64,000 bases of DNA from Acidobacteriota bacterium (GTDB taxonomy: Bacteria > Acidobacteriota > Vicinamibacteria > Vicinamibacterales > CAVVIG01): assembly GCA_043743165.1 (NCBI GenBank), contig JAYTXA010000066.1, positions 4,847 to 68,846 of the forward strand, in the 5' to 3' direction. Positions within the stretch are counted from its first letter, which is position 1; the number at the start of each line of letters is the position of its first letter. The notes under the pieces are model-generated. The model was not told where the DNA came from. It made no database searches and saw only the letters and a list, made by a program, of their open reading frames with translations. Below are positions 15,926-45,253 of this stretch, one piece after another. The position numbers and the translations under genes are program-made.

Positions 15926-17151
15926 GTTGGAGTTCTGACGTTCTCGGGGCGGTCGTGAAGCGCGGCGGCGGCGCGATTCAGACAGGCCCTTTCGGCTCGC
16001 AACTTCACCAAGCCGACTACACACCGGACGGCGTTCCGGTCATCATGCCGAAAGACATTCGTGAGGGACGGGTGAGCACGGAAACCGTGGCTATGGTGTC
16101 CGAGCCAACGGCCGTCCGGCTAAAGCGTCATCGACTGGCTCCGCGAACGATCGTTTTGCCCCGGCGAGGCGAAGTCACGAAGCGGGCTTTCATCAGGGAG
16201 GACCAACGGGGCTGGCTCTGCGGAACAGGCTGCCTTCAGATAGTCCTGGGCGGCAGCGAGCTGCATCCAGAGTTCCTCTACTACTTCATGGAGCAACAGG
16301 AAGTCGCTCGCTGGCTGGAGCAACATGCGGTAGGCACGACGATGCTGAATCTGAGCGCCGGCATTGTGGCGGACCTCCCCTTGCGCTATCCGGAAGCGGC
16401 GAGCCAGGGACGCATTGCCGGGATTCTCGCAACCTACGACGACCTGATTGAGAACAACCGTCGCCGCTTGGCGCTGCTCGAAGACGCGGCGCGGCAGGTC
16501 TATCGCGAGTGGTTCGTCCGCCTCCGCTTCCCCGGCCACGAGCACACACGCGTCGTCGACGGCGTGCCTGAAGGATGGTCATCGTGGAGAGTTGACGAGA
16601 TCTGCGACGTTGGCCGGGGCGCTTCACCGCGGCCGATAGCCGCGTTCATGGGCGGCGACATTCCATGGTTCAAGATCGGAGACGCGACCGGGTCTGAGAG
16701 CCCCTTCGTGCTCAGAACTGAGGAGCAAGTAACCGATAAGGGCGCCGAGAAGAGCGTCGCCCTTGAGGCCGGCGCGCTTATTCTTTCTAACAGCGCCACC
16801 TGCGGTATCCCATTCTTCACTGGGGTGCCAGGATGCATCCACGACGGCTGGCTGTATTTCACATGCTTGAAAAGAGTGTCGGAGCGGTTTCTCTACTGCT
16901 TCCTCCACTTCAAGAAAGATGAACTCGTCAGCAGCGTCAGCGACGGTTCCACCCAGAAGAATCTCAATACCTCCGCGGTAAGTAGGTTGGTCATGCTGCT
17001 TCCCGACAACGACCGCCTGCTCGGGCACTTCGAGGAGACGGTTCAACCGATGTTCTCGCAGGCACTGAATCTCGCGGGGCAAAACCAAAAGCTCCGAGCC
17101 GCGCGCGACCTGCTGCTGCCACGCCTGATGAGTGGTGAGATCACCGTATGA
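15922..17151 (+). CDS. hsdS: Type I restriction-modification specificity subunit
   Basis: ATGA overlap with the hsdM stop. Two target-recognition halves are separated by conserved helices (RRRLALLEDAARQVYREWFVRLRFPG, and KLRAARDLLLPRLMSGEI at the C-terminus). Confidence 0.9.
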   Translation: MSWSSDVLGAVVKRGGGAIQTGPFGSQLHQADYTPDGVPVIMPKDIREGRVSTETVAMVSEPTAVRLKRHRLAPRTIVLPRRGEVTKRAFIREDQRGWLCGTGCLQIVLGGSELHPEFLYYFMEQQEVARWLEQHAVGTTMLNLSAGIVADLPLRYPEAASQGRIAGILATYDDLIENNRRRLALLEDAARQVYREWFVRLRFPGHEHTRVVDGVPEGWSSWRVDEICDVGRGASPRPIAAFMGGDIPWFKIGDATGSESPFVLRTEEQVTDKGAEKSVALEAGALILSNSATCGIPFFTGVPGCIHDGWLYFTCLKRVSERFLYCFLHFKKDELVSSVSDGSTQKNLNTSAVSRLVMLLPDNDRLLGHFEETVQPMFSQALNLAGQNQKLRAARDLLLPRLMSGEITV

Positions 17152-18881
17152 GCCCGAAGCCGACCTCGAAGCCTACCGTCAACAGTGCGAGCGCGGCAGC
17201 GCCGCCACCAACGCCAACCGTCCTGCTGCAACCGGACAACAGCAACAAGAAGTACGAAGCCCTGTTCGTCCAGATCGACACCGGAGAGATCAAGTTGCCG
17301 CGGTTCCAGCGGGAGTTCGTCTGGGACAAGGAACAGTCGGCCAAGCTGATCGACTCCATCCTGAAGGGCTTTCCCATCGGCACCTTCATCTTCTGGAAGA
17401 CCAAGGAGGAACTGCGCAGCTACAAGGAAGTGGGCAACCACAAGCTGCCGGACACGCCCAAGGGCGACTACGTTCAGTACATCCTCGACGGCCAGCAGCG
17501 CATCACGTCCCTGTATGCCATCAGGAAGGGCATCCGCCTGACCAAGGACGGCAAGGAAATCGACTACAAGGACATCTTCATCGACCTGCACTTCGACGCT
17601 GCGAAGGATGAGCAGATCGTCGTGACGGAAATGCTCGAAGGCCGAGCCTACGTCTCGGTCCACGATGTGCTGAGCAAGTCGCTCATGAGCCTGTTAAAGG
17701 CCCTCGGTGCGGAGCACGCCGAACAGATCGAAACCTACCGGAACACGCTCACGACCTACGACTTCTCCACCATCGCCATCAAGGACTACCCCATCGAGGT
17801 GGCCTGCGAGATCTTTTCCCGCATCAACACCGGCGGGAAAGTGCTGACCGTGTTCGAGGTGATGGTCGCCAAGACCTACGACGAGTCGAAGCGGTTCGAC
17901 CTGTCCGAGCGCTACGAAGTGCTCCGCGATGGCTCGGACGATGAGAAGGACTGCCTGGCAGCGGCGGGGTTCGACACGCTGCCGGCGTCAATCGTGATGC
18001 AGTGCGTGGCCGCCATCACACTCGGAGCCGTTCGAAGCCGCGATATCCTGAAGATCAAGCGAGAGACGTTCATCGCCAACTGGGAACCGATGAAGGCGGC
18101 TCTGTTCATGGCTGTCGACTTCGTCCGCGCCGAACTGCGCGTGCCGGTGTCCCAGCTCGTGCCCTACCCGGCCGTGCTGGTGCCGCTCACCTACTTCTTC
18201 CATACGATTGGCAACAAGAAGGCGAGCAACGACCAGGCTCGCCGGCTGGAACAGTTCTTCTACTGGGTGGGACTGACCGAGCGCTACAGCTCGGCAACGG
18301 AGTCGAAGCTGGCGGAAGACTTCGCCCGAATGGACGCCATTCGCAGGAGCAAGGCGCCCACGTATCCGCACAGCGAACTCGTGATCGACCCGAGCGCGAT
18401 CAAGGAGACGACGTTCTCCGCAGGCAACGCCTACTGCAAGTCGATCCTGTGCCTGCTCGCTTACCAGCAACCCCTGTCGTTCGACACCAGCGGTCTCGTC
18501 AACCTCGACAACAGCCACCTGAAGATCGCGACAAGCCGGAACTATCACCACTTCTTCCCGAAAGCCTACCTGGCCGGCGTCGATCCTCACGCCGAGCCGA
18601 ATCTCGTGGCGAACATCACGCTGATTGACGGCTATTCGAACAAGCACCGCATCGGGAAGAAGGCGCCGGGCAGCTATATCGGGAAGTTCGCCAAGGCCAA
18701 CAAGAAGCTGACCCACGCCCTGAAGACCCACCTGATCGGCGACCTGGACGAATACGGCGTGCGCGACAACGACTACGACGTCTTCATCGATCGGCGGTCG
18801 AAAGCGATCGCTCTCGCCCTGAATGTGAAGTTGGGATCGATGACACGAAAAGAGGCGGCCGAGGCCGACGGGGCCGAGTAG
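17148..18881 (+). CDS. DUF262/DUF1524 (GmrSD-like) protein embedded in the Type I R-M operon
   Basis: ATGA overlap with the hsdS stop. DUF262 motifs LPRFQREFVW, FPIGTFIFW and ILDGQQRITSLY. The C-terminal His-Me-like region is HHFFPKAYL..NITLIDGYSNKHRIGKKAP. Confidence 0.85.
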   Translation: MSPKPTSKPTVNSASAAAPPPTPTVLLQPDNSNKKYEALFVQIDTGEIKLPRFQREFVWDKEQSAKLIDSILKGFPIGTFIFWKTKEELRSYKEVGNHKLPDTPKGDYVQYILDGQQRITSLYAIRKGIRLTKDGKEIDYKDIFIDLHFDAAKDEQIVVTEMLEGRAYVSVHDVLSKSLMSLLKALGAEHAEQIETYRNTLTTYDFSTIAIKDYPIEVACEIFSRINTGGKVLTVFEVMVAKTYDESKRFDLSERYEVLRDGSDDEKDCLAAAGFDTLPASIVMQCVAAITLGAVRSRDILKIKRETFIANWEPMKAALFMAVDFVRAELRVPVSQLVPYPAVLVPLTYFFHTIGNKKASNDQARRLEQFFYWVGLTERYSSATESKLAEDFARMDAIRRSKAPTYPHSELVIDPSAIKETTFSAGNAYCKSILCLLAYQQPLSFDTSGLVNLDNSHLKIATSRNYHHFFPKAYLAGVDPHAEPNLVANITLIDGYSNKHRIGKKAPGSYIGKFAKANKKLTHALKTHLIGDLDEYGVRDNDYDVFIDRRSKAIALALNVKLGSMTRKEAAEADGAE

Positions 18882-18921
18882 TGCAGTCCACGCCGCTCAT
18901 GTCTTGAACATCTTGCCGGCG

Positions 18922-18958
18922 GTTTACAAATTACAGTACTATCGACGTTTTTGTAAAC
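18922..18958. promoter_or_regulatory. 9-bp inverted repeat (candidate XRE operator) in an AT-rich promoter island
   Basis: GTTTACAAA(18922-30)-N19-TTTGTAAAC(18950-58). A possible TTACAG-N17-TAAACT promoter overlaps it. It lies 17 nt upstream of the XRE-ImmA start. Confidence 0.35.
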
Positions 18959-18974
18959 TATCTGATTTGGAGAG

Positions 18975-20054
18975 ATGGGGACAGTCATGATCGGCGCACG
19001 CCTGAAATTGGCACGAGCAGCCGCGGGCCTCTCGCTCCGACAGCTCGAAGGTGAACTCGGAAGCCTGGTCACGGCGCAGGCCATCGGCAAGTACGAGCGC
19101 GACGAAATGATGCCGTCGTCCACGGTGCTTCTCGCCCTCGCCAAGCGCCTTGGCGTCACGGAGGACTACCTCCTGAACCCTGCCGATGTTGAACTCGTGG
19201 CCGTGGAGTTTCGGAAGAAGAAACTCACGAGCGCGAGGGAATCGGCGGCGGTCCAGGCGCGCATCCTCTCAGAGGTAGAGCGCTACCAGGAGATCGAGCA
19301 GATCCTCGGAATCGACGGCCGTAGTACGCCGGACCTGCCGACCAAGGCGGTCAGCGCGCTGGACGACGTCGAGCGCGCCGCTGAGGAACTTCGGGTCGAG
19401 TGGAGCCTGGGCGAAGACGCCATCCCGAACCTGTGCGAGTTCCTCGAAGAGAGGGGCGTGAAAGTGTGCGCCATCCCCCTTCCGGAGAGCGTGTCCGGTG
19501 TTCAGGCCAATGTCAGGTCCGCCGACGATCGCGTCGTGCGCGTGATCGTGGTGAACGCACACCATCCAGGCGAACGCCAACGATTCACGCTGGCGCATGA
19601 ACTCGGCCACCTGTGTCTCGAGGCGTCCGGCAGCCTCGACATCGAGGACGCGTGCAACCGGTTTGCTGGCGCCTTTCTCGTCCCGAAGGCGTTGCTCGAG
19701 CGAGAGGTGGGCAAACGCCGGAAGGCGATCTGGCTCCGGGAGCTGTTCGAACTGAAGCTGCTCTTCGGCGTCAGCGCCCAGGCCATCGCCTATCGCTGCA
19801 AAGACCTGGGAATCATGAGCCAGGCAGCAATGGCCGTGGTCTTCCAGACGTTCAGCAAGAAGGGCTGGCGGAAGGTGGAGCCACTGGCTCGAGCGTCGGA
19901 ACGCCCTGCCCGGTTCGAACGCCTGTGCCTGCGTGCGCTGGCAGAGGGCTTCATCAGCGAATCTAAAGCGTCGGAGCTGCTGAAGAAGAGCACGCGCGAA
20001 ATCATCGCCAGCCTGGACGCCCCGCCCCAGATAGGTGCCGTCGATGCCAGGTGA
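18975..20054 (+). CDS. XRE-family HTH fused to ImmA/IrrE-type metallopeptidase (COG2856-like)
   Basis: N-terminal HTH_3 (GARLKLARAAAGLSLRQLEGELG..ISKYERD-like). Central HExxH: RFTLAHELGHLCLE. Alternative start ATG 18987. Confidence 0.85.
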   Translation: MGTVMIGARLKLARAAAGLSLRQLEGELGSLVTAQAIGKYERDEMMPSSTVLLALAKRLGVTEDYLLNPADVELVAVEFRKKKLTSARESAAVQARILSEVERYQEIEQILGIDGRSTPDLPTKAVSALDDVERAAEELRVEWSLGEDAIPNLCEFLEERGVKVCAIPLPESVSGVQANVRSADDRVVRVIVVNAHHPGERQRFTLAHELGHLCLEASGSLDIEDACNRFAGAFLVPKALLEREVGKRRKAIWLRELFELKLLFGVSAQAIAYRCKDLGIMSQAAMAVVFQTFSKKGWRKVEPLARASERPARFERLCLRALAEGFISESKASELLKKSTREIIASLDAPPQIGAVDAR

Positions 20055-20259
20055 TGGCGCCCTTCGCTCGTTAGCTGAGGCCGAACAGGTCGAGTGCCAC
20101 GGGGTGCTCTGGGTTCTTGACCAGCTCGAACAACACGGTGCCCTGACGGCCCCCCAGTTGGCTGAAGCGCTGACGACCATTCAGGACCATCCACGATGCC
20201 GGTTGCCTGGCGGCGAGATGCGGCGTCGCCTCGAGCGATATCGCGACTCGCAGCCGTAG
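20035..20259 (+). CDS. small ORF, possible remnant of a PIN-like/DUF3368-type protein
   Basis: 74 aa. GVLWVLDQLEQHGALTAPQLAEAL weakly recalls the C-terminal part of DUF3368/PIN-like proteins (from memory only). It overlaps the ImmA end by 20 nt. Confidence 0.2.
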   Translation: MPSMPGDGALRSLAEAEQVECHGVLWVLDQLEQHGALTAPQLAEALTTIQDHPRCRLPGGEMRRRLERYRDSQP

Positions 20260-23200
20260 GGCCTTCTGGTACACAATCGGCCACCAACACACGCGTGGCA
20301 TTCACCGACATCAACAACGAGGACCGGCTGGTCCAGGACACCTTTGCCCGCCATCTGGAAGAGGCGCTGGGCTGGGTAAGCCTCTATGCGTTCAACGCGG
20401 AGACCTTCGGCCCACAAGGCACCCTGGGCCGAACATCGGAACGTGATGTCGTGCTCGTGCGAGACCTCCGGGCCGCACTCGAACGCCTGAACCCGGACCT
20501 GCCGGCGGACGTGCGTGAGCAGGCCGTCGAGACGCTCACCCGCATCGATTTCAGCCGCTCGCTCGTCCAGCACAACCGCGAGTTCTACCAACACATCCGC
20601 AACGGCGTGCCTGTGAGCTGGCGCGACGAACTCGGCGAACTCCGGTACGCCCACGCGCACGTCATCGACTTCCGCGACCACACCCGCAATCGCTTCCTCG
20701 CGGTTCGCGAGCTGAAGATTCAGGGCGTCCGCGTGCCGCATTACAACCGGCGCGCCGATCTGGTCTGCTTCGTCAACGGGCTGCCGCTCGTGTTCATCGA
20801 GCTGAAAGCCGTCTACCGCAATATCCGCGCGGGCTTCGACGACAACCTCACCGACTACCTGTCGGACCACAGCATCCAGCACGCCTTTCATCACAACGCG
20901 TTCCTGGTGGTAAGCAATGGCGACCAGGCTCGATACGGCTCCATTACCAGCAAATGGGAGCACTTCGTCGAGTGGAAGCGCAACGCCGAGACCGACACGG
21001 CTCGTCTCGACGCACAGGCGCTGCTCGACGGCATGCTGGCGAAAGAACGCCTGCTGGACCTGGTCGAGAACTTCGTCCTGTTCGACGACAGCCGCACGGG
21101 CGGCGCGCGCAAGGTGGTGGCGCGGAATCACCAGGTGCTTGGGGTGAACAACGCCGTGGCCTCGGTTATCCGACAGGAAGCGCTCAAGCGCAATTACCCC
21201 ATTGCCGACAGGTTGATTGAGTATCGGGCGCCAGTCGAGCGCCCACTCGCCGCTGAAGGACCTCCGCCCGAGTCGTGGGGAACAGCCTCTGCTGCTGATG
21301 CATCGCCAGACACGGGAATACCGATCCTCGAGCGCGCGCACGACGAGCTCGGTCGCCTCGGCGTCTTCTGGCACACACAGGGCAGCGGCAAGTCCTACTC
21401 GATGGCCTTCTTCGCCGAGAAGGTCAGGCGTGTGGTGCCAGGAAACTTCACCTTCGTGGTGATGACGGACCGGGACGACCTCGACGACCAGATCTGGCGC
21501 ACGTTCGCCGGCTGCGGAGTCATCGACCAGAAGACACCGCGTGCCGGCTCCGGCAGGGAGCTGCAGGAACTGCTCCGCGGGAATCACCGCTTCGTGTTCA
21601 GCCTGATCCACAAGTTCAACCAGCCGGTCGTCGAACCGTACAGCGTTCGCGACGACATCATCGTCATCTCCGACGAAGCGCACCGCACCCAGTCGGGCCG
21701 CTTCGCGAGGAACATGCGGCTTGCATTGCCCTACGCGTCGTTCATCGGCTTCACGGGCACGCCGCTCTTCAAGCACGATCAGCTCACCCGCCGTATCTTC
21801 GGGAACTACGTCTCGCGCTACGACTTCAAGCGGTCCGAAGAGGATCAGTCCACCGTGAAGCTGGTCTACGAGAACCGGGGCGAGAAGCTGCAGATTGCCA
21901 GACTGGATCTGAACGACCGGATTGCCGAAGCTGTGGAGAGAGCGGAACTGGACCCGGACCAGACAGCCCTGCTCGAGAAACTGCTGGGCAAGGACTATGA
22001 AGTGATCACCGCTCCGGGCCGGCTCGACAAGCTTGCCGACGATTTCGTCGAGCACTGCTCGACACGCTGGGAAACCGGCAAGTCGATGCTGGTCGGCATC
22101 GATAAGTTGACCTGCGCGGGCATGCTCACGCGCATCGAGCACCGGTGGAAGACGCGGATTGCTGAACTCGATGCGCTGGTGCCGGTCCGAGAAGCCGACA
22201 TTGCCGCGGCAGCGGACGACCAGACCCGCGAAGAGCTGTCGGCGCGGCTGGCATCCCTACAGCGCCAGATCGCATGGATGTCGAGCACCATCATCGCACT
22301 CGTCATCAGCGAAGCGCAGAATGAGGTCCGCGATTTCAAGAAGAAGAGCTTCGACATCGTTCCTCACCGGGTCCGGATGAAGACCGGGTTCGACACGCCG
22401 GATGGCCGGCGCGTCAGTGTTGACGACGCGTTCAAAGATCCGGACCATCCGTTCCGAATCGCCATCGTCTGCGCCATGTGGCTGACGGGGTTCGATGTCG
22501 AGTGCCTGGCGACGATGTACATCGACAAGCCGATGAGGGCCCACACGCTGATGCAGGCGATCGCGCGAGCCAATCGCGTCTTCCCTGGCAAGGACTGCGG
22601 CGTCATCGTCGACTACAACGGCATGCTGAAGAGCCTGCGCGAGGCGCTGGCACAATACGCCCTCGGCGATGACGGCGACGGCACCGGCGGCACGATCGTT
22701 GGTCCCATCGAGGATCTGGTGGCCAGCCTGCTGGAAGCAATTGTCGCCACCGAGCAGCATCTCCTCGCGCTCGGGTTCGACACCACGCGACTGCGCGGAG
22801 CATCCGGCTTCACTCGGATTGAGTTACTCCGCACTGCCGCTGACGCCGTCTACACGTCTGACGATGCCAAGCGGCGATTCGAGATCATGGCGCGTCTGGT
22901 GTTCGCGCGTTTCAAGCCGCTGCTCGCGGAGCCGAGCGCGCTCATCTACGGCGAGCGCCACGACAACATCGAAGCCATCTACCGAAAGCTGCAGGACAAG
23001 CGGGACACAGCCGACGTGTCCGCACTCCTCGAACAGCTGCAGCAGATCGTGAACGAGGCTATCAGCACTGCTGCGCCTGGCGATGATCAGGCTGAAGGGC
23101 TGACTGTCGACCTCAGCCAGATCGACTTCGACAAGCTGCGCAAGGAATTCGCACGGAAGGCGCGCCGACCGCACACCGCGGTCCACGACCTGCGGCAGTT

Positions 23201-23696
23201 GATCGAAGACAGGCTTGCGACGATGCTCGCGCGCAATCCTCTGTTGATGGACTATCAGAAGACGTATCAGGCCATCGTCGCCGACTACAACCGCGAGAAG
23301 GACCGCACTACCGTTGAGCAGACCTTCGCGGAGTTGATCGCGCTCGCGCAGAGCCTCGACGCCGAGCAGCAACGCGCCGCGCAGGAAGGTCTGACCGACG
23401 ACGAGCTGGTGCTCTTCGACCTGTTGTTCAAGCCTGACCTGGCCAGGACCGAACGCGAGCGTCTGAAACAGGCCAGCCGAGCCCTGCTGTCTGCCGTCCG
23501 AGGCCTGATCCGTCCGATGCCGAACTGGTCGAGGAACCCAACCACACAGGCGGAAGTGAAGGTCTTCATCGTCGATCGGCTCTATGAAGCGCTCCCGCGG
23601 CCGCCGTTCACCGAGGACGAGACCGACGCGGTTGCGAGTCGGGTCTACGAGTACGTCTGGCAGCGAAGCGAATTCGGTCCGACGCTGGCGGCCTGA
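20196..23696 (+). CDS. hsdR: Type I restriction endonuclease subunit (helicase/nuclease)
   Basis: HsdR N-terminal nuclease region (ADLVCFVNGLPLVFIELKA), SF2 motifs FWHTQGSGKSYSM and ISDEAHRTQ, and a C-terminal helical domain. A GTG at 20295 (VAFTDINNEDRLVQ) is a likely true start. Confidence 0.95.
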   Translation: MPVAWRRDAASPRAISRLAAVGPSGTQSATNTRVAFTDINNEDRLVQDTFARHLEEALGWVSLYAFNAETFGPQGTLGRTSERDVVLVRDLRAALERLNPDLPADVREQAVETLTRIDFSRSLVQHNREFYQHIRNGVPVSWRDELGELRYAHAHVIDFRDHTRNRFLAVRELKIQGVRVPHYNRRADLVCFVNGLPLVFIELKAVYRNIRAGFDDNLTDYLSDHSIQHAFHHNAFLVVSNGDQARYGSITSKWEHFVEWKRNAETDTARLDAQALLDGMLAKERLLDLVENFVLFDDSRTGGARKVVARNHQVLGVNNAVASVIRQEALKRNYPIADRLIEYRAPVERPLAAEGPPPESWGTASAADASPDTGIPILERAHDELGRLGVFWHTQGSGKSYSMAFFAEKVRRVVPGNFTFVVMTDRDDLDDQIWRTFAGCGVIDQKTPRAGSGRELQELLRGNHRFVFSLIHKFNQPVVEPYSVRDDIIVISDEAHRTQSGRFARNMRLALPYASFIGFTGTPLFKHDQLTRRIFGNYVSRYDFKRSEEDQSTVKLVYENRGEKLQIARLDLNDRIAEAVERAELDPDQTALLEKLLGKDYEVITAPGRLDKLADDFVEHCSTRWETGKSMLVGIDKLTCAGMLTRIEHRWKTRIAELDALVPVREADIAAAADDQTREELSARLASLQRQIAWMSSTIIALVISEAQNEVRDFKKKSFDIVPHRVRMKTGFDTPDGRRVSVDDAFKDPDHPFRIAIVCAMWLTGFDVECLATMYIDKPMRAHTLMQAIARANRVFPGKDCGVIVDYNGMLKSLREALAQYALGDDGDGTGGTIVGPIEDLVASLLEAIVATEQHLLALGFDTTRLRGASGFTRIELLRTAADAVYTSDDAKRRFEIMARLVFARFKPLLAEPSALIYGERHDNIEAIYRKLQDKRDTADVSALLEQLQQIVNEAISTAAPGDDQAEGLTVDLSQIDFDKLRKEFARKARRPHTAVHDLRQLIEDRLATMLARNPLLMDYQKTYQAIVADYNREKDRTTVEQTFAELIALAQSLDAEQQRAAQEGLTDDELVLFDLLFKPDLARTERERLKQASRALLSAVRGLIRPMPNWSRNPTTQAEVKVFIVDRLYEALPRPPFTEDETDAVASRVYEYVWQRSEFGPTLAA

Positions 23697-25197: not shown

Positions 25198-25202
25198 GAG
25201 AT

Positions 25203-25235
25203 CAGGCTTCGGACTCTCGGCTCCGGGCTCTGGGC
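25203..25235. repeat. right arm of inverted repeat bracketing the ECF cassette
   Basis: CAGGCTTCGGACTCTCGGCTCCGGGCTCTGGGC, 6 nt after the anti-sigma stop. A related third copy in direct orientation to the left arm lies at 25301-25330 (GCCCGGAGCCTGAAGCCCAGAGCCAGCCTG). Confidence 0.5.
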
Positions 25236-25411
25236 CTGCTCGGTCCGGCTAAAGGCGGACACTACGATGGTGCCCATCGACCCGTCGCGTTTCGCCTGCA
25301 GCCCGGAGCCTGAAGCCCAGAGCCAGCCTGTGGCTCGCCCCTTGCCCCTTCCTCGACGTCGTACGGACTCGCACGCCGAAACACTCGACATTCCACGAAT
25401 GCCGGCGTCGC

Positions 25412-27850
25412 GTGCGCAGATTCCGCACCCAGCGAGGCATGGTGGCGATGGAGATTTCGCAACACAGGATCGGGGACCGCGTGCGTGTGCGCCAGCGCAC
25501 CTGGATGGTGCAGCAGGTGGACAACTACGCCGGTTGCCTGGTCTACACGCTCGGAGGCCTCGGGCACACCGGCCCTGCCACCTGCCGCGTCCTGCATCCG
25601 TTCGACGATGTCGAGCGGGTCGAGGCGGTGCGTCGGACACGGCGCGTACCGCTGCGCACGTGGAGGCAGGCCTGTCGTGCGCTGCTGCTGCAGCACGGCG
25701 ATGCGTCGGCGCTCAGAACCGCTGCATCGGCTCGCATCGAGTTGCTGCCCTATCAGCTCGAGCCAACCCTGGCACTGCTGCAGGGGCACGGGGCACGGCT
25801 GCTCATCGCCGACGAGGTCGGCCTCGGCAAGACGGTGCAGGCCATGCTGGCCGTTGCGGAGCTGCGCGCGCGCGGCCTCGTCTCCCGCGTGCTCGTGCTG
25901 TGTCCAGCCGGCCTGCGCGAGCAATGGGTGGACGAGTGCGCGTCGCGTTTCGATTTGCTGCTTGCCCTCCTCGACCACGCCGCGATTCGCCGGGCGGTGT
26001 CGCGGCATCCGCCGGGGGTGAACCCGTGGCTGCTCGAACCGCTGGCGGTCGCGTCCATCGACTACGTGAAGCGTCCGGACGTGTTGCCCGCCGTGCTGCA
26101 AGCGCACTGGGACATGGTCATCGTCGACGAAGCCCACGGGGCCTGTGGCGACTCGGACCGCCACGAGGCCGTGTCCCGGCTCTGCGCCCGCGCACCCTGG
26201 GTGGTGCTGCTCACCGCGACGCCCCATAGCGGCGACGACGGGGCGTTCACGTCGCTGTGCGCGTTCGGGCGGCACGACGACGGGCTGGTGGTGTTCCGCC
26301 GGTCACGCCTCGAGACCGGTCGCGACGCCGGTCGCCGGGTGCATACCTTGCGGGTGCACCAGACGCCGCCGGAGCGCCGCATGCACGCTGCACTGGCCAC
26401 GCTCACGAAAGCCATGCGGCAGGCGTCGACCGAACTGGATCGGCATGCCTGGCTACTGCTCACCCTGCTCCACAAGCGTGCGCTGTCCAGCCCATTCGCG
26501 CTGGCCGCCTCCGTCGAGCGCCGGCTGCAGCTGCTGGGCACCTCGGCCGATGCCGCAACCCAGCAACTACTGCTGCCTCTAACCGACCCGACCGGCGAGC
26601 TCGACGACGCCGACACCGCGCCGATGTGGAGCGCGCCGGTGCTTGATGATGTTGGTCGCGAGCGTCGCCTGCTCGAACAACTGCTCGCCGCCGCCAGAGA
26701 TGCCGAGGGCACCGAGGCCAAGCTGCACCGGCTGCGGCGTCTGCTGTGCCGCCTGCGCGAGCCGGTCATCATCTTCACGGAGTATCGCGACACGCTGATG
26801 CACATGCGGACGCAGGTGGCCCCGCACGCATCCGTGGTGCACGGCGGCATGACGCGCGAGCAGCGACGCGCGGCGCTCGCGGCCTTTCCGTCCGCAGGCG
26901 TGTTGCTCGCCACCGATGCGGCGGGCGAAGGGCTGAACCTGCAGTCGCAGTGTCGAATGGTCGTCAACCTCGAGCTGCCGTGGAATCCGATGCGGCTCGA
27001 ACAGCGGATTGGCCGCGTCGATCGCATTGGTCAGCGAGCGCGAGTGCACGTCGTGCATCTCGTGGCCGAGGGCACCGGCGAAACGCGGCTGCTCGAGCGA
27101 CTGGCCGGACGCGTGCAGCAGGCGCGCGCTCGCGTCGGCGCGCCAGACCCACTCTGCAGCCGGCCGGAATGGGCGGATCAGGCGTCGGCAGCGCTCGTCG
27201 TACTGGGAAGCGACACGCCGGACATGGCAGCGCGGACCGCCAGCACTCCGCCCTCGATGCCGTTGACGCGGCTCGTCGACGAGAGCGAGTGCGAAGCGGC
27301 ACGCGTCCGGTCGATGCGGCTCATCGCAGAGGCGCACGCACGTCTGGCCGCGCGCCCAGGAGCGTTCGGGGTGTTGGTCAGCCGGGCACGCGCGGCGCAC
27401 ACGCGCGCGGCGTTGGCGGGCCGCGCGCTGGCTGTCTTCCGCTCGGCGATCACCGACGGTGGCGGGCGCCTGGTCGCCACGCACGTCTCCGCCGTGCTCA
27501 GCCCACCGGGCACGCCAATCGAGGTCGCGGCGCGCGCTGCCGCTCTGCATGCTTCTCGCGGGGAGTGGTCGGCACAGGTGCGCGAGGTGCACGCGCGCCT
27601 CACCGCGGTGTGCGCGAACCGTGCCCGGCACATCGCCGGACTGTTCGACTCCGCGCGCGGCGAGCGGCAGCCCGGATTGTTCGACCGCCGCGTCGAGCGC
27701 GAACGGCGCGACACGACCGACGCGCAACTGGCTGCGCGCGCCCGCGCCGATGAACGTGTCGCGCGTGTGGAGCAGTCGTTCACGCTGGAGGCGACCGCAA
27801 GCGAGCTGGTGCTGCTGCTGTCGCCAGGCGCCGACGGAGCACCGCGATGA
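25412..27850 (+). CDS. SNF2/RAD54-family helicase
   Basis: LLPYQLEPTL..LLIADEVGLGKTVQA (motif I), MVIVDEAHGA (DEAH). Helicase-C region: VVHGGMTREQR..LLATDAAGEGLNLQ..NLELPWNPMRLEQRIGRVDRIGQ. The start is more likely ATG 25439 or 25448. Confidence 0.9.
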   Translation: MRRFRTQRGMVAMEISQHRIGDRVRVRQRTWMVQQVDNYAGCLVYTLGGLGHTGPATCRVLHPFDDVERVEAVRRTRRVPLRTWRQACRALLLQHGDASALRTAASARIELLPYQLEPTLALLQGHGARLLIADEVGLGKTVQAMLAVAELRARGLVSRVLVLCPAGLREQWVDECASRFDLLLALLDHAAIRRAVSRHPPGVNPWLLEPLAVASIDYVKRPDVLPAVLQAHWDMVIVDEAHGACGDSDRHEAVSRLCARAPWVVLLTATPHSGDDGAFTSLCAFGRHDDGLVVFRRSRLETGRDAGRRVHTLRVHQTPPERRMHAALATLTKAMRQASTELDRHAWLLLTLLHKRALSSPFALAASVERRLQLLGTSADAATQQLLLPLTDPTGELDDADTAPMWSAPVLDDVGRERRLLEQLLAAARDAEGTEAKLHRLRRLLCRLREPVIIFTEYRDTLMHMRTQVAPHASVVHGGMTREQRRAALAAFPSAGVLLATDAAGEGLNLQSQCRMVVNLELPWNPMRLEQRIGRVDRIGQRARVHVVHLVAEGTGETRLLERLAGRVQQARARVGAPDPLCSRPEWADQASAALVVLGSDTPDMAARTASTPPSMPLTRLVDESECEAARVRSMRLIAEAHARLAARPGAFGVLVSRARAAHTRAALAGRALAVFRSAITDGGGRLVATHVSAVLSPPGTPIEVAARAAALHASRGEWSAQVREVHARLTAVCANRARHIAGLFDSARGERQPGLFDRRVERERRDTTDAQLAARARADERVARVEQSFTLEATASELVLLLSPGADGAPR

Positions 27851-30800
27851 TTCCCGGCTTCGGCGGACACCTGCTCCCGGAAGACTTCGTCGAGGAACGA
27901 CTGCGGTCCGCCCAGGCGCGCGCCGCGGGTGTCGAGCTGCAACGCGCCATGAAGACCTGGTGCGCAGCCACGGCATCACTGGGCCCGGCCACCGGACTGC
28001 GCGCGCTGGTCGACGTGGCGTTGCTCCCGCTGCTCGAACACCTTGGCTTCTCCGCGCCAGGGGTGGCGGCCATGCACCGCGAGCACGCGACCGTGCCGTG
28101 CTTGGCCGGTCGGTCGCCGGTGGTGCTGCTGGCGTGTCCGTGGGGAACGGCGCTGGACCGGCACTGGCGTGCGGCCGTGGTCGACGCGCAGCGCCTCGGC
28201 GCGCGCTGGTGCCTGCTCTTCAACGGCACGCATCTCCGCCTGGTGTCCGCGGCGCGACTGCACTCGCGGCGCCACGCCGAGATGCACCTCGAGGAGGCCG
28301 CCGACGACCCGCGGGCCGCGGCGGCGCTGGCGGCACTGTTCACGTCACGGTGGTTCGACGGCGATCGCGACGCCCTCAGCGCGCTGCTGGCTGATGCGGA
28401 GCAGCACGCTGCCACCGTCTGCCAATCGCTGCGCGGCGGCGTGCTGGACGCATCGGCGCACGTGCTGAGGGCCCTGCTGACACGGGAGCGGACGCGACCG
28501 GTGGCCGACGTCTTCGAGCAGTCGCTCACGATCGTCTACCGGCTGCTCTTCCTCTTCTTTGCCGAGGCGCGAGGGCTGGTGCCGCTCTGGCACCCGCTCT
28601 ACCGGGACAGTTACAGCGTGCAGACGCTGCGAGAAGCGGCACTCACACCCGACAGCGTCGGACTGTGGGACGGTCTGCGCGCCGCCACTCGGCTGGCCCA
28701 TGCCGGCTGCCACGCCGCCGGACTCACCGTCACTGCGTTCAACGGCCGGCTCTTCTCTCCCACTCGCACGCCACTCGCCGAGAAGCGCAACCTCGACGAT
28801 GCCGAGGCGAGGCAGGCCATTATCGCGGTCTCCACACGACGAGGCGCCGACGCCGAGGTGCGCGAGCGCATCTCCTATCGCGATCTCGACGTGGAGCAAC
28901 TCGGCGCGGTGTACGAGACGCTGCTCGACTACGAACCGCATGTCGAGCGGACACCGCGTGGGCGCGCCTTGAAGGTCTCGCTCCGTCCAGGCTCCGGCGT
29001 GCGGAAAGCCACCGGGACGTTCTACACGCCGCAATCGCTCGTCGAGCACCTGCTGCGCGACACGCTGGCGCCGCTCGTGCGCGACGCCACACCCGAGCAG
29101 ATCCTCACGCGCTCGGTGCTCGACCCATCGATGGGCAGCGGCGCTTTCCTGGTAGGTGCCTGCCGCTATCTCGCCACGGCGTACGAAACCGCACTCGTTG
29201 CATGCGGCCGCTGCCATCCGGGCGACCTCGGCCCGTCGGAGCGGGCCTCCATCCGGCGCCTCATCGCCGAGCGGTGCCTGTACGGGGTCGACATCAACCC
29301 GACCGCCGTTCAACTCACCCGGCTGTCGCTCTGGCTCGCCACCCTTGCGGCGGATCGTCCGCTCACGTTCCTCGACCACCGCCTGCGCGTCGGCGACAGC
29401 CTGTCGGGCACCTGGCTCGCGCTGGTGCGGTCGGCCCCAACCCCCAGGCGCGCATCCGGCAGCTTGCCGCTGTTCCCGGACGACCTTCCGGCCGAGGCGC
29501 TGCGCGGCGTGCTGCCTGTCCGCTTCAGCCTGGCGGCCGGGCCGAACGACACCGCGGCACAAGTGCGGGCCAAGGAGCGCGCGCTCGAGCGCCTCGCCGC
29601 TCCGGGGTCGCCGCTCTTCACGTGGAACCGCGTGGCCGACGCCTGGTGCGCGGCATGGCTCGCCTCGCCGCCCGTGCCGCCACACACCTTCGGCGACCTG
29701 TCCGATGCGCTCATCACGGGGCGCTCGCAACTGGCCAACACCACGCTGAAGGAACTGCTCGCACGCGTAGACGCCACACGCGACACGCGCCGGCTGTTCC
29801 ACTGGGAGCTCGAGTTCCCCGAGGTGTTCTTCGACGAGTCTGGCGCCAGAAAGACCGGCGCGGGATTCGACGCCATCGTCGGCAACCCACCATGGGACAT
29901 GGTGCGCGCCGACGGTGCAGGCGACCGCGACGCCGCCAGGATGGAGGCCTCGTCGCTGGTGCGCTTCGCCCGCGACTCCGGCGTGTACGAGGCCCGGTCG
30001 GATGGCCACGCCAATCGCTATCAACTGTTTGTCGAGCGGGCGCTCGCGCTGACGAAGCCTGGCGGACGCATCGGGCTCGTGCTGCCCTCGGGCATCGTGG
30101 CCGACGCGGGGAGTGCGTCGCTGCGACGGTTGTTGTTCTCGCGCGCCCGCGTCGAGCGCGTCATCGGCTTCGACAACCGGCGCGGTACCTTTCCCATTCA
30201 CCGCAGCGTGCGCTTCGTACTGCTTTCGGCCACTGCCGGCGCACCGACGAGCGAGATCGCCTGCCGGTTCGGTGAACAGGATCCCGCCGCGCTGAGCCGG
30301 GTCGCCTTGGACGGCGGCCGCATGGACCCCACCTGGTTCACCACACGCGTCACGCCAGCGCTGCTCCAGCGCCTGTCAGGCGACGACCTCTCCATTCCCG
30401 ATCTCCGCTCGCCGCTCGACCTGGCCATCCTCGAACGGGCCGCGTCGCTGTTCCCCCCATTGGGCTCGGACGCAGGATGGCGGGCGCGTTTCGGCCGCGA
30501 GCTGAACGCCACCGAAGACCGGCGCTGGATGCGGGCGGACGGTGTTGGTGCACCGGTGTTCGAGGGGAAACGCATCGAGCCGTTCCGGACCCTGCCGGGT
30601 CCGGCGCCGTGGCACATCGACCCGGAGCACGCGGACCGCCTGCTTGGCGCGCGCTGGCGACGCACACGCCTCGCCTACCGCGACGTGGCCAGTGCCACGA
30701 ACCGGGTCACGCTCATCGCCGCGCTGCTGCCGGCGAGGTCGGTCTCCACGCACACGCTGTTCTGCCTGAAGACCGATGTGCCGCATGGAACGCAGCGCCT

Positions 30801-31131
30801 GCTCTGCGCGCTCTTCAACAGCCTGGTGGTGAACTTCCTCGTTCGCCTCCGCGTCACCACCCACGTCACCACGTCCATCGTGGAGCGCTTGCCGATGCCG
30901 CTCGAGCACGACCTCGGGCCCGACGCCGATCGGCTCGTGGCCGCGGCCGCCACGCTCGAGCGGACACCGGACGCCCAACGCGTCGCCTGGCTGAACGGTG
31001 CGGCGGCCCGCGCCTATCAGCTCACCAGCGAGGAGTTCGCGCACGTGCTCGCGAGCTTCCCACTCATCGACGCGTCGGAACGCGACGCCATGCGCCGCGC
31101 CTTCGAGCGCCCGGAAGACGTCGTGTTCTGA
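27847..31131 (+). CDS. large N6-adenine DNA methyltransferase, Eco57I/PglX-like (Type IIG/IIL architecture)
   Basis: 1094 aa. ATGA overlap with the helicase stop. LLFLFFAEARGLVP helical region, GTFYTPQSLVEHL, motif I VLDPSMGSGAFLVG, motif IV IVGNPPWDMV, and a C-terminal specificity-like domain (LFNSLVVNFLVR..ERLPMP). Confidence 0.9.
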   Translation: MIPGFGGHLLPEDFVEERLRSAQARAAGVELQRAMKTWCAATASLGPATGLRALVDVALLPLLEHLGFSAPGVAAMHREHATVPCLAGRSPVVLLACPWGTALDRHWRAAVVDAQRLGARWCLLFNGTHLRLVSAARLHSRRHAEMHLEEAADDPRAAAALAALFTSRWFDGDRDALSALLADAEQHAATVCQSLRGGVLDASAHVLRALLTRERTRPVADVFEQSLTIVYRLLFLFFAEARGLVPLWHPLYRDSYSVQTLREAALTPDSVGLWDGLRAATRLAHAGCHAAGLTVTAFNGRLFSPTRTPLAEKRNLDDAEARQAIIAVSTRRGADAEVRERISYRDLDVEQLGAVYETLLDYEPHVERTPRGRALKVSLRPGSGVRKATGTFYTPQSLVEHLLRDTLAPLVRDATPEQILTRSVLDPSMGSGAFLVGACRYLATAYETALVACGRCHPGDLGPSERASIRRLIAERCLYGVDINPTAVQLTRLSLWLATLAADRPLTFLDHRLRVGDSLSGTWLALVRSAPTPRRASGSLPLFPDDLPAEALRGVLPVRFSLAAGPNDTAAQVRAKERALERLAAPGSPLFTWNRVADAWCAAWLASPPVPPHTFGDLSDALITGRSQLANTTLKELLARVDATRDTRRLFHWELEFPEVFFDESGARKTGAGFDAIVGNPPWDMVRADGAGDRDAARMEASSLVRFARDSGVYEARSDGHANRYQLFVERALALTKPGGRIGLVLPSGIVADAGSASLRRLLFSRARVERVIGFDNRRGTFPIHRSVRFVLLSATAGAPTSEIACRFGEQDPAALSRVALDGGRMDPTWFTTRVTPALLQRLSGDDLSIPDLRSPLDLAILERAASLFPPLGSDAGWRARFGRELNATEDRRWMRADGVGAPVFEGKRIEPFRTLPGPAPWHIDPEHADRLLGARWRRTRLAYRDVASATNRVTLIAALLPARSVSTHTLFCLKTDVPHGTQRLLCALFNSLVVNFLVRLRVTTHVTTSIVERLPMPLEHDLGPDADRLVAAAATLERTPDAQRVAWLNGAAARAYQLTSEEFAHVLASFPLIDASERDAMRRAFERPEDVVF

Positions 31132-36999: not shown

Positions 37000-39411
37000 C
37001 TACGTCCACAGCAGCGCGACGAGCTTCACCGCCACGTTGGTGCGCTTCGGCTTGACCTCGATCCGCTCGAACGTTTCGGTGGCCGGATCACCCGCGGCTT
37101 CGAGCGTAGCCGTCTCGAGCTTCAACTCGTCTTCGAGCTCCAGTTGCTGCTGCTCCAGCACCTGCACTTCGCGCTGGGCGTCGGCGATATCGCCCGACTC
37201 CTTCATCGTCCGGCTCATGCCGCGTGCCGCGGTGGTGGCGCGACCGAGCGTGCTGGCCGTGATGGCCTTGCGTCCCATGAGCGCGCCCATCAGCGTGGCG
37301 CCGACCGAAATTATCGTCTGCAGCTTCTGGCCGGACGCCTGCTCCGACTCCTTCGCCACTCTGGTGACGGCGCGGCGCTTCTTCTCTTCGAGCGCCGCCT
37401 GCCTCGGCGCGTACTTGCGACGTAGTGTATCCAGCGTGCGATCGCGCTCTTCGCGCGACACCTGCTGTAGCCGCGCGCGGAAGTCGCGTTCGGTTTCATC
37501 GGGGCGCGACGTCTCGCCCGTCGACGGGCTGCGCAGCACCTCGAGCACTGCTTTGGTGGTGACGGTGGTGACGAACTGCTTCGACCAGGCGTCGTAGTTC
37601 TTCGCCTTCAGCGCCGGAGCCGGCACGGCCGCATACGTCGCCTCGTCGGGCGCGTCGCGCTCGAGCAGTTCGGGCGCCATGTCGAGCGCCTCGGCAGCGT
37701 CCCAATCGACGGCCACGGCGCCGTCGCCGATCGGGGTCGTCCAGGTGACGAGCCGGGTGGCATCGAGCTTCAGCTTGGGGTCGAGGAAGCGCACGTTGGC
37801 CGACCCGTAGACAACGGGGGTCAGCGGCACCGGCCCACCCGGTGCCTCGGGCGAGAAGAACTGTGGCACGTCTGGCGGTACGACGGGGCGCGCAGCCGCG
37901 GCAACAGCAGCGGCCAGCTTCGGTACGGCGGCGACAGGAGCGGCGACAGCAGGAGCGGCACCCCCAACAACGGCCTGAGCGCGGTGTCCGGCCGAGAGCC
38001 GCTTGATGTCGTCGCGGCCGAGCGGACCGCGCAGGTACGACAGCGCCCATCGCGACTGGAACAGCGTGAGTCCGTCTTCATGCACGTTGCGCATCAGGAA
38101 GACGCGGCTGGTGAGGCTCGACAGCAGTCGATCGAGTTCGGCCCGATCGAAGCCCGCGTGCTCGCTGGCGCCTTCGAGACCGTCGATGAGACGCGCCTTG
38201 TCGCGCTCGGTCTGCAGGCGGCCGAGCCACCAGGTGCCGATGTTCGAGAGCCCCTTGTAGTCGAGGTCGACCGGATTCTGCGTCGCCAGCATTACGCCAA
38301 CACCGGCCGCGCGCCCCTGCTTCAGCAGCGTGAGCAGGGGCCCCTTCGACGGCGGATTCGCGGTCGGTGGGAAGTAGCCGAAGATCTCGTCCATGTAGAC
38401 CAGAGCACGCAGGCTGGTGGTGCCGCCCTGCGTCCGCATCCAGCCGGCCACGGCGTTCAGCAGCAACGACACGAAGAACATGCGCTGCGTGTCGTCGAGG
38501 TGCGCAATCGAGAAGATGGAGACGCGCGGCTTGCCCGAGGTCGTGCGCAGGAACGCGGCAACATCGAGCGGATCGCCCTGCGTCCACACCTCGAACCCGG
38601 GCGATGCGATGAGCGCATTGATGGTCATCGCCAGCGCGAAGCGGTCCTTCGCCGGGTAGAAGCTCTCGAGGTCGATGACACCGATGCGCGTCATCGGCGG
38701 TTGCTGGATACGCTGGATCAGCATGGCGAGGTCGGGGCTGTCGCCCGACTGCCACGCGGACAGCAGGATGGTAGTGAGCAGGATGTGTTCGCGGCTCTTG
38801 AGCGGCTCGCCTTCCACACCGGCCAGTGCCAGCAGGCTCGATACCGTCGTCTGGGCGCGTTCGCGCACGAGTTCCGGGTCGTCCACCGACGGCTTCTGGA
38901 ACGAGGTGAGCACCGACACTGGCGTACCGGCCGTGCTGCCAGGCGTGTAGATGGTGAAGTCTGCCGCGTCGCGCAGGCGCTGGATGCGTGCGCCGTCCTG
39001 CCCCCAGTCGGCCAGTCCGCTCTTCCACCGATCCGCCTGCTCGGCGGCAAACGCCGGCACGTCCTTGCCTGCTCGCCGCGCATCGTCCTCGTTCACCCAC
39101 GGTTCGAAGTCGTCCGTGCCCAGCTGCGGGAACGTGAGGACGAGGTTCGTGAGGTCGCCCTTCGGGTCGATGACGATGACCGGCACCGAGTCGATGGCGG
39201 CTTCCTCGATGACCGCAATGCCGAGCCCGGTCTTGCCGCTGCCGGTCATCCCGACGCAAAGGGCGTGCGTTACCAGATCCTTCGAGTCGTAGAGGACGAG
39301 GTCGCCGGTCGGCTTCTTCGTCTCGGCGTCGACGCGACGCCCCAGGTAGAAGACGCCGAGCTTCTCGAACGCACTGGTCATTGGTCGTGGGTCGGTCGTC
39401 GAAGGCGCCAT
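37000..39411 (-). CDS. HerA/FtsK-like P-loop ATPase (DUF87-type) with long C-terminal coiled-coil region
   Basis: 803 aa. THALCVGMTGSGKTGLGIAVIEEA (Walker A), VIVIDPKGDL. The C-terminal part is rich in heptad-like E/K/R/L segments and has one hydrophobic stretch (IISVGATLMGALMG). Confidence 0.75.
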   Translation of the reverse strand: MAPSTTDPRPMTSAFEKLGVFYLGRRVDAETKKPTGDLVLYDSKDLVTHALCVGMTGSGKTGLGIAVIEEAAIDSVPVIVIDPKGDLTNLVLTFPQLGTDDFEPWVNEDDARRAGKDVPAFAAEQADRWKSGLADWGQDGARIQRLRDAADFTIYTPGSTAGTPVSVLTSFQKPSVDDPELVRERAQTTVSSLLALAGVEGEPLKSREHILLTTILLSAWQSGDSPDLAMLIQRIQQPPMTRIGVIDLESFYPAKDRFALAMTINALIASPGFEVWTQGDPLDVAAFLRTTSGKPRVSIFSIAHLDDTQRMFFVSLLLNAVAGWMRTQGGTTSLRALVYMDEIFGYFPPTANPPSKGPLLTLLKQGRAAGVGVMLATQNPVDLDYKGLSNIGTWWLGRLQTERDKARLIDGLEGASEHAGFDRAELDRLLSSLTSRVFLMRNVHEDGLTLFQSRWALSYLRGPLGRDDIKRLSAGHRAQAVVGGAAPAVAAPVAAVPKLAAAVAAAARPVVPPDVPQFFSPEAPGGPVPLTPVVYGSANVRFLDPKLKLDATRLVTWTTPIGDGAVAVDWDAAEALDMAPELLERDAPDEATYAAVPAPALKAKNYDAWSKQFVTTVTTKAVLEVLRSPSTGETSRPDETERDFRARLQQVSREERDRTLDTLRRKYAPRQAALEEKKRRAVTRVAKESEQASGQKLQTIISVGATLMGALMGRKAITASTLGRATTAARGMSRTMKESGDIADAQREVQVLEQQQLELEDELKLETATLEAAGDPATETFERIEVKPKRTNVAVKLVALLWT

Positions 39412-44619: not shown

Positions 44620-45240
44620 TCAGAGAACCGAGGTCTGCGCTGTCCCAAACCATCTCACGACCGACGATCGAAGGCGCAAGAATGCTTCGTCCGTGCAACG
44701 TGTAAGGCTGATGTTCCGTGCGACCTGCTCGTAGAGGGCCGATGAGCGCGGAACCTGAGCGCGCCTGAACGCCGCGGTGAGCGCCTCTTTTGGGCGTAGT
44801 GGCTTCCCGTCCGGAGCAAAGACGAAGGACTGGGACTCCAGCCAAGCTCTGATGCCCTCCGAAAAGCGCCAATCCACCGCTGAGCGCAGGTGTGTCTCGG
44901 CTCCCCACATCCATGCATCCACCTCAGGGTAGATGACGATAGCCTTTGCGCGGTCTCCCCATAGGGCGCGTAAAGAACCATCCAACTGGGCTTCCAACTC
45001 AACGGGACCAACCGGAGAGCCGGAGCCTTCATAGTCCAGCAGCAGGAGGGCGTGGGAGAACCGACCGTGTTGAACGCCCAGCAACTGGCTGCCTCTGCGC
45101 CGCACACCGCCATCGCGGCCTTGCTCCACGAGAACCTCGAAATCGAGTGTTCGAATTCCGAGCGCCTCCGGCCGACTGAGGGCGCCACGAACGGTGTATT
45201 CGGTGTTCTTGTCAGGCACGAGCAGAATGAGATCGCGCAT
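44620..45240 (-). CDS. TOPRIM-like/DUF4276-like partner of the upstream ABC-type ATPase
   Basis: 206 aa. LILLVPDKNTEYTV, ALLLLDYEGSG and AIVIYPEVDAWMW lie in the order expected for the acidic TOPRIM/DUF4276 motifs. The assignment is from memory of family patterns and has not been searched. Confidence 0.5.
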   Translation of the reverse strand: MRDLILLVPDKNTEYTVRGALSRPEALGIRTLDFEVLVEQGRDGGVRRRGSQLLGVQHGRFSHALLLLDYEGSGSPVGPVELEAQLDGSLRALWGDRAKAIVIYPEVDAWMWGAETHLRSAVDWRFSEGIRAWLESQSFVFAPDGKPLRPKEALTAAFRRAQVPRSSALYEQVARNISLTRCTDEAFLRLRSSVVRWFGTAQTSVL

Positions 45241-45253
45241 CGCGCCGGCCGGC

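Follow-up and report, generated by a model that had tools for sequence, protein, structure and literature searches.

What does a Snf2-type helicase do beside a PglX-like adenine methylase when no effector accompanies the two? Such a sub-module is common to DISARM, ARMADA and type 3 BREX, where it has always been studied alongside effectors. Here, we analysed a gene pair of this kind in an Acidobacteriota bacterium of the order Vicinamibacterales (assembly GCA_043743165.1, contig JAYTXA010000066.1, positions 4,847 to 68,846 of the forward strand). The whole 64-kb stretch is called the window, and all coordinates are positions within it. We tentatively favour the view that the pair derives by vertical inheritance from the DrmD/DrmMI–ArmA/ArmB helicase–methylase module, lacks an effector and methylates host DNA, a reading that we consider quite possible.

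The helicase–methylase module as such is already known from DISARM and ARMADA. What is new here is its stand-alone, lineage-fixed form in Vicinamibacterales soil bacteria. This clade appears to offer a natural effector-free version of the module, selected at one chromosomal site over deep divergence. Its main value lies in being a natural minimal system for learning what the shared module does alone, and it is a clean one for asking whether the motor helps the methylase, whether the pair alone interferes with invaders and whether immune modules can be domesticated into cellular DNA-methylation machinery.

A translationally coupled helicase and methylase

Both open reading frames (ORFs) proposed in a preliminary description of this locus are present on the forward strand, at 25412-27850 and 27847-31131, and the ATGA stop/start overlap said to couple them lies at 27847-27850. 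The first had been described as an 812-aa SNF2 helicase. While the SNF2 ORF is real, its start is most likely the ATG at 25448, which would give 800 aa, and the GTG at 25412 appears to be too early. We prefer the ATG because the database gene call (P0121, 800 aa) begins there (MEIS..., with GAGG ahead) and because the aligned helicase orthologues start at MEI.... Helicase residue numbers refer to this 800-aa protein.

The coupling extends beyond the window. The helicase gene lies directly upstream of the methylase gene in 40 of 42 related loci. The 4-nt stop/start overlap recurs in 12 of 27 loci, and the gap falls between -13 and +12 nt in 24 of these 27. Pairwise identities of the helicases and of the methylases are strongly correlated (r = 0.90 over 351 pairs).

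The helicase scored over the cut-off for both SNF2-rel_dom (PF00176) and Helicase_C (PF00271) in Pfam. Its Walker A, DEAH and motif VI sequences, together with RapA as the nearest structure, place it in the RapA-like branch of the Swi2/Snf2 family, and the catalytic motifs are invariant in 62 sequences. An AlphaFold (AF2) model built from 62 homologues (pLDDT 80.8) begins with a small N-terminal beta-barrel, followed by the Snf2 core, then an alpha+beta domain and finally a long helical hairpin. The best fold match of this model was full-length RapA (E-value of 2.7e-24, about 1000 columns), which was also the top sequence match among Protein Data Bank (PDB) sequences (1.6e-37). RapA is thus the closest solved structure by both sequence and fold. 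The helicase nevertheless differs from RapA in having one N-terminal barrel instead of a tandem pair, a different C-terminus, a score of 166 bits against a cut-off of 576 and a genetically coupled methylase. Within the barrel, the alignment shows the conserved pattern GDRVRVR..W..C..TL..PFD. In PMC12839542, the corresponding domain of BrxHII and RapA is assigned as Tudor, and the layout described for type 3 BREX BrxHII (Tudor, Snf2, alpha+beta domain) resembles that of our helicase.

One helicase motif is specific to the clade. QPGLFDRR, in the loop of the hairpin, is near-invariant across the closer half of the clade and absent from ARMADA-type helicases; we take it to be similar to the Qxx(L/M)F motif that binds the sliding clamp.

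The methylase matched Eco57I (PF07669, 85 bits, cut-off 25) and N6_Mtase (PF02384, 50 bits, cut-off 20). Motif I and the NPPW motif IV occur in the gamma order, as in gamma-class N6-adenine methyltransferases, and the catalytic motifs are invariant in sets of 64 and 35 sequences. An AF2 model from 64 homologues (pLDDT 83) had full-length BREX PglX/BrxX proteins as its top fold matches (8zek, 8q56 and 8c45; E ~1e-16, 1030-1087 columns). Further fold matches, through the methylase part, were to CamA, M.BseCI, BpuSI and DrdV. The C-terminal domain resembles the C-terminal part of the Alw26I/Eco31I/Esp3I methylase model (TIGR02987). All of the motifs quoted in the preliminary description, namely GLGKT, DEAH, RIGQ, FLFFAEARGLVP, DPSMGSGAF and NPPW, are present (Table 1).

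Table 1. Coordinates of the helicase–methylase pair, its domains and its leader in the window.
Feature	Residues	Window position	Strand	Basis or remark
Intergenic leader, ECF-sigma cassette to helicase gene		25198..25447	+	Imperfect inverted repeat 25202-25235 / 25300-25324
Helicase gene, RapA/BrxHII-type Swi2/Snf2 ATPase	800 aa	25448..27850	+	Longest ORF from GTG 25412
Small N-terminal beta-barrel, Tudor-like	11-50	25478..25597	+	Model strands 11-14, 17-27, 30-37, 45-50
Snf2 ATPase core	~95-560	25730..27127	+	Pfam, alignments, invariant motifs
Walker A GLGKT	125-129	25820-25834	+	Invariant
DEAH	227-230	26126-26137	+	Invariant
Motif VI QRIGRVDRIGQ	RIGQ = 526-529	27002-27034	+	Invariant
C-terminal region, alpha+beta domain then long helical hairpin	~577-792	27176..27823	+	Alignments, model
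Clade-specific motif QPGLFDRR, hairpin loop	741-748	27668-27691	+	Alignment, model
Methylase gene, PglX-like gamma-class N6-adenine DNA methyltransferase	1094 aa	27847..31131	+	Pfam, fold matches
N-terminal alpha/beta domain, Arg/Trp-rich	1-170	27847..28356	+	Alignments, model
Helical domain, common to DrmMI models (PDLC02640, aa 123-365)	171-380	28357..28986	+	PADLOC, model
FLFFAEARGLVP, in helical domain	235-246	28549-28584	+	Motif search
Methyltransferase core	381-800	28987..30246	+	Pfam, alignments
Motif I DPSMGSGAF	426-434	29122-29148	+	Invariant
Helical insert in methylase core	~531-665		+	Alignments
Motif IV NPPW	680-683	29884-29895	+	Invariant
C-terminal specificity-like domain	801-1094	30247..31128	+	TIGR02987 match, aa 669-1086

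The pair was found in one lineage and is under purifying selection

We next determined how widespread the pair is. In the protein database, well over 100 clusters at 90% identity contain full-length homologues of the methylase (54-93% identity), and their named members are labelled Vicinamibacterales. An exhaustive search of representatives at 50% identity separated two tiers: a collinear family of ~1080-1160 aa, reaching down to roughly 40% identity, and longer proteins of 1240-1500 aa that match piecewise at 33-40% identity. A genome scan of contigs, with one genome per species and with counts that are lower bounds, yielded at least 47 loci with the full-length methylase family at 38-56% identity. 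Among the matches listed, records labelled Vicinamibacterales, Vicinamibacteria or Acidobacteriota account for all but one, the exception being a partial match (L041) in a record titled 'uncultured delta proteobacterium', and identity falls abruptly to at most 30% in other phyla. Viral contigs contained no ingroup homologue, their relatives having 24-31% identity.

Compared with locus L084, whose methylase is 88% identical, the ratio of non-synonymous to synonymous substitution rates (dN/dS) was 0.20 for the helicase and 0.13 for the methylase. The synonymous divergence (dS) of the pair was 0.69-0.74, and that of flanking genes 0.50-1.07. The pair is under purifying selection. The G+C content of the pair is 0.70-0.72 in the window, and in 26 of 26 loci the pair is richer in G+C than its flanks (0.687 versus 0.659). 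Acquired defence genes usually show the opposite, an AT-bias. Some copies in metagenome-assembled genomes (MAGs) look split or truncated (L019, L041, L047 and L051) and may be assembly frameshifts or genuine pseudogenes.

The surroundings of the pair are also conserved. A histidine kinase, HU, QueF, Smr, an M14 peptidase, TauE, DUF2461 and an aldehyde dehydrogenase recur as neighbours across related loci. HU, QueF and Smr were considered as partners, as they are syntenic in 19 loci. However, they lie 5-6 kb from the pair with other genes in between and thus serve as markers of vertical inheritance only.

The adjacent Type I restriction–modification locus is a recent insertion

The preliminary description placed the pair in a defence island on account of the Type I restriction–modification (R-M) locus beside it. 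Comparison with relatives argues against this. The R-M block has a G+C content of 0.60-0.63, versus 0.65-0.72 around it, and is absent from both L084, which lies on a 1.75-Mb contig, and L001, whose methylase is 63% identical. In L001, a 220-bp gap separates the M14 peptidase gene from the DUF6249/extracytoplasmic function (ECF) sigma factor cassette, and the pair comes next. L084 keeps the histidine kinase, HU, QueF and Smr genes upstream and the DUF1634/TauE, DUF2461 and aldehyde dehydrogenase genes downstream. Because these syntenic relatives lack it, the Type I R-M block is a recent insertion specific to the window genome, where it separates the M14 peptidase gene from the ECF cassette. 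The pair is older than this insertion and lies outside any defence island, its other neighbours being housekeeping genes. Adjacency to an R-M locus is hence weak evidence for a defence role unless relatives are compared.

The R-M locus itself spans 13802-23696 and encodes HsdM, HsdS and HsdR. It encloses a GmrSD/DUF262-type gene at 17148-18881 (PDC-M55C/HEC-05-like) and a gene with helix-turn-helix and IrrE domains at 18975-20054 (RmrA-like).

No linked partner gene

Scans of the main window ORFs with Pfam and PADLOC found no partners of the DISARM, BREX or ARMADA type. YprA/DUF1998, PLD, PglZ, BrxC and DUF499 genes were not found among the main window ORFs or within ±10 kb around about 45 related loci. 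We also built a hidden Markov model (HMM) from 10 YprA-like proteins of ARMADA type I-like loci. It had no match in the window or in about 45-48 ingroup loci, even at E<=10, while its own loci, as a positive control, scored 1582-2787 bits. Nor did we find a conserved third gene within ±10 kb of 42 related loci, not all of whose ORFs were scanned with Pfam: beyond the pair itself, the most that any gene recurs is in 19 of the 42. Pfam scans of representatives from ten recurrent unlabelled neighbour families gave housekeeping types for nine and no match for the tenth. A nuclease domain was not found in either the helicase or the methylase. The statement that drmA/B/C, pglZ, brxC/L and a separate endonuclease are missing thus holds for linked genes in the window and extends to the about 45 related loci, so the pair stands alone elsewhere too.

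Running PADLOC on the locus, as had been proposed, returned DrmD (7.7e-82) for the helicase and DrmMI (5.5e-101) for the methylase as best matches, with only the enzyme cores aligning, and no core partners. DrmD and DrmMI were also the best NCBIfam matches. The suggested relation to DrmD and DrmMI is therefore borne out, at some distance, with both proteins scoring below the curated cut-off. Against the curated DrmD model NF038317, the helicase scored 302 bits, where the cut-off is 610, over profile positions 90-655 of 1021. The methylase scored 34-37 bits against the PglX models NF033451, NF033452 and NF033455, whose cut-offs are 400-900.

Relatives outside the clade and known systems

Outgroup proteins matched the methylase at 24-30% identity and were of two kinds, solo proteins of ~1350 aa and members of three-gene arrays. 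The arrays encode a ~1725-aa YprA-like helicase that is DruE-like by score, a ~950-aa Snf2 protein and a ~1330-aa methylase. We called them ARMADA type I from their gene order together with the DruE-like PADLOC matches, and among the matches listed, loci of this order are the nearest helicase-linked relatives outside the clade. Across ARMADA-like and other outgroup loci, helicases are about 29-36% identical to that of the pair over the best BLAST segment. The ingroup forms a separate clade, at most 36% identical to the outgroup, and its proteins are shorter (800 versus ~950 aa and 1094 versus ~1350 aa). A YprA-like gene is adjacent in 10 of the 14 outgroup loci that hold both helicase and methylase, versus none of about 45 ingroup loci.

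Solo methylases were found in many phyla (L050, L053, L055-L060, L062, L063, L065-L067, L069, L071-L073, L075, L078, L080 and L083). They are typically ~1350 aa long with a mean mutual identity of ~50% (37-64% by region), and the two that were scanned gave Type IIG-like scores. One of them (L056) is carried by a Vicinamibacterales chromosome. The solo methylases seem to form a family that has spread widely by transfer and that is separate from the Vicinamibacteria pair.

Class 1 DISARM has the same arrangement, a RapA-like Snf2 gene with a large gamma-class N6-adenine methylase gene downstream. The pair lacks the core triplet of DrmA, DrmB (DUF1998) and DrmC (PLD), its proteins are shorter, and it is lineage-fixed and syntenic rather than island-borne. 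The ArmA and ArmB proteins of ARMADA I and II likewise combine a BrxHII/RapA-like helicase with a PglX-like methylase in the same order, but the pair has neither an adjacent YprA-like ArmC (DUF1998) nor a GajB-like ArmD. A keyword search of the ARMADA and BREX-diversity papers returned no description of a stand-alone pair. The likeness to BREX rests on full-length PglX as the best structural match of the methylase, whereas PglZ, BrxC/PglY, BrxA and BrxB of BREX types 1 and 3 are absent among the scanned window ORFs and the conserved neighbours in the ingroup.

DUF499-centred/Hma systems also combine a Snf2 helicase with an N6-adenine methylase (HmaA match, 3.9e-53). The hallmarks of these systems are a DUF499 ATPase and, in most cases, a nuclease; the window ORFs on either side of the pair contained neither. 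Unlike Type IIG/IIL enzymes, the methylase has no conserved N-terminal PD-(D/E)xK catalytic Asp, Glu and Lys. The idea of a split Type ISP enzyme did not survive either. The pair consists of two polypeptides rather than one, its motor is of the RapA/BrxHII Snf2 type, no nuclease domain was found and the methylase has the architecture of PglX.

How the pair may act

Together, these observations are consistent with the following model. One translationally coupled message would yield both proteins, which probably work together in a complex. Powered by ATP, the RapA-like Snf2 motor may travel along duplex DNA that is covered by proteins, or remodel it, and could thereby open sites to the PglX-like enzyme, which would place N6-methyladenine (m6A) on the host chromosome. 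The target site is probably short and non-palindromic, by analogy with those of PglX and DrmMI. DrmMI of the Serratia class 1 DISARM makes m6A at the non-palindromic site ACACAG. There, the whole system gave more complete m6A than the two methylases on their own, which is compatible with accessory proteins aiding methylation. Since no nuclease or effector appears to read the mark in cis, the output would be methylation itself, as an epigenetic or housekeeping mark or as a passive protective mark.

A resident cellular function fits the pair better than a mobile immune system. We favour it because the pair is found in one class at a fixed chromosomal site, with native composition, purifying selection and tight coupling, and because partner proteins and 150-250 residues per protein have been lost relative to the ARMADA and DISARM homologues. 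For the same reasons of one class, synteny, native composition and purifying selection, an uncharacterised defence system, as first suggested, has become less likely.

Several points weigh against a resident methylating role. Every characterised relative of both proteins, in DISARM, ARMADA and BREX, acts in phage defence. The partner search covers ±10 kb per related genome and the 64 kb of the window, and a scan of one genome per species establishes neither prevalence within the Vicinamibacterales nor absence elsewhere. Six metagenome DNA runs, from sediment, soil and lake, hold the locus, and no RNA run does. We found nothing in the literature on Vicinamibacter methylomes or on methylation in this clade. 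The variability of the specificity domain does not discriminate between readings, as a comparison of per-region identity in the ingroup, ARMADA-context and solo methylase sets had the same outcome in all three, the C-terminal region being no more variable than the rest.

A further step beyond the methylating module would be its domestication, in which a defence-derived Snf2 remodeller and a PglX-type methylase have become a clade-wide bacterial epigenetic machine. We consider this quite unlikely as it stands. The motor would clear or track nucleoid-protein-bound or newly replicated DNA while the methylase maintains the m6A pattern, and the QPGLF loop might serve as its tether to a host factor, for example the sliding clamp. 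If true, the domesticated pair would be a prokaryotic counterpart of DDM1/LSH remodeller-assisted DNA methylation in eukaryotes.

Alternative explanations

The alternative that survives best, although we judge it somewhat unlikely, is an autonomous, minimal and nuclease-free defence system. Here, the PglX-like enzyme would mark self, and a methylase–Snf2 complex would translocate on unmethylated invading DNA and block its replication or transcription in a BREX-like manner. That all characterised homologues are defence components is in line with this, and BREX, the source of the top structural match to the methylase (PglX), achieves restriction with no classical endonuclease. In Serratia DISARM, the effect of deleting drmD-drmMI is phage-specific, and replication of phage Nami was fully restored only when drmD-drmMI and drmABC were deleted together, which hints at a small independent contribution of drmD-drmMI. 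Yet BREX needs PglZ and BrxC, and ARMADA II in E. coli needs all four genes for defence (bioRxiv 10.1101/2025.09.15.676423; PMC13463889). The distribution of the pair, in one class and at one syntenic site, with native or higher G+C and a dS near that of its flanks, is the opposite of the patchy pattern of defence islands, and homologues on viral contigs are all at most 31% identical.

We find it distinctly improbable that the pair is one half of a dispersed known system, serving modification and sensing in a DISARM- or ARMADA-like system with its YprA/DUF1998 helicase-nuclease encoded at another place in the genome. DrmD and DrmMI as best HMM matches would fit such an arrangement, and so would the limited span inspected per genome. 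Against it stand the contrast in YprA-like adjacency between outgroup and ingroup loci and the shorter proteins of the ingroup, a separate clade, which fit a loss of partner-binding parts.

A cryptic Type IIG or ISP restriction enzyme, with a divergent nuclease in the N-domain of the methylase or in the C-terminal alpha+beta domain of the helicase, is very improbable. PADLOC Type IIG models do match parts of the methylase, and BpuSI and DrdV are among its fold matches, but the Type IIG matches fall on the methylase core and C-terminus. Alignments of 16, 35 and 64 sequences contained no invariant Asp, Glu or Lys in methylase residues 1-170, where the invariant residues are Gly, Pro and Arg and where Trp and Leu are near-invariant. 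As the N-domain thus lacks any invariant acidic or Lys residue, an active nuclease there seems unlikely. Searching its profile against PDB sequences returned no solved nuclease, only spurious armadillo-repeat matches. For the helicase, the ATPase of BrxHII and RapA is followed by a domain with a restriction-endonuclease-like fold, but PMC12839542 describes this domain as catalytically degenerate, and neither Pfam nor the alignment revealed an HNH, PLD or PD-(D/E)xK signature in the helicase C-terminus.

Finally, a decaying remnant of a lost defence system without current function, as the missing effector genes and the fragmented-looking MAG copies might indicate, is scarcely credible given a dN/dS of 0.13-0.20, catalytic motifs that are invariant in sequences as divergent as 38% identity, conserved translational coupling and the fact that the fragmented copies may be assembly errors.

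Immediate surroundings and other features of the window

On its 5' side, the pair is preceded by a DUF6249-like gene, an ECF sigma factor and a 117-aa ORF, in agreement with its reported start after an ECF cassette. We considered this cassette as a regulator or third component. It adjoins the pair only in the closest relatives (the window, L001, L002 and partly L051), and the intergenic DNA is not conserved; we therefore rejected it as a defining part. The inverted repeat in the leader is composed of 7/14-nt units, and leader sequence conservation was looked for in L001 and L002 and not found. At the matching position of L001, the heptamer AGTTCTG is repeated in tandem 8.9 times (7343-7404 of that locus). 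The leader repeat may act to terminate the ECF operon, or may be a variable simple-sequence tract. On the 3' side, the convergent membrane genes noted earlier are a DUF1634/TauE pair, whose end lies 16 nt from the methylase stop rather than 17.

Two further loci in the window were recorded. An AAA_21 ATPase gene at 45254-46510 on the reverse strand had HEC-01A, mad3 and AriA-like PADLOC matches and adjoins an unannotated 206-aa ORF (44620-45240, reverse strand), with a local dip in G+C to 0.625. This region, 44620-46510, may be a second small defence-type locus. An 803-aa protein encoded at 37000-39411 on the reverse strand had weak HerA/DUF87 and mad8 matches and occupies the same syntenic position in L001 and L084.

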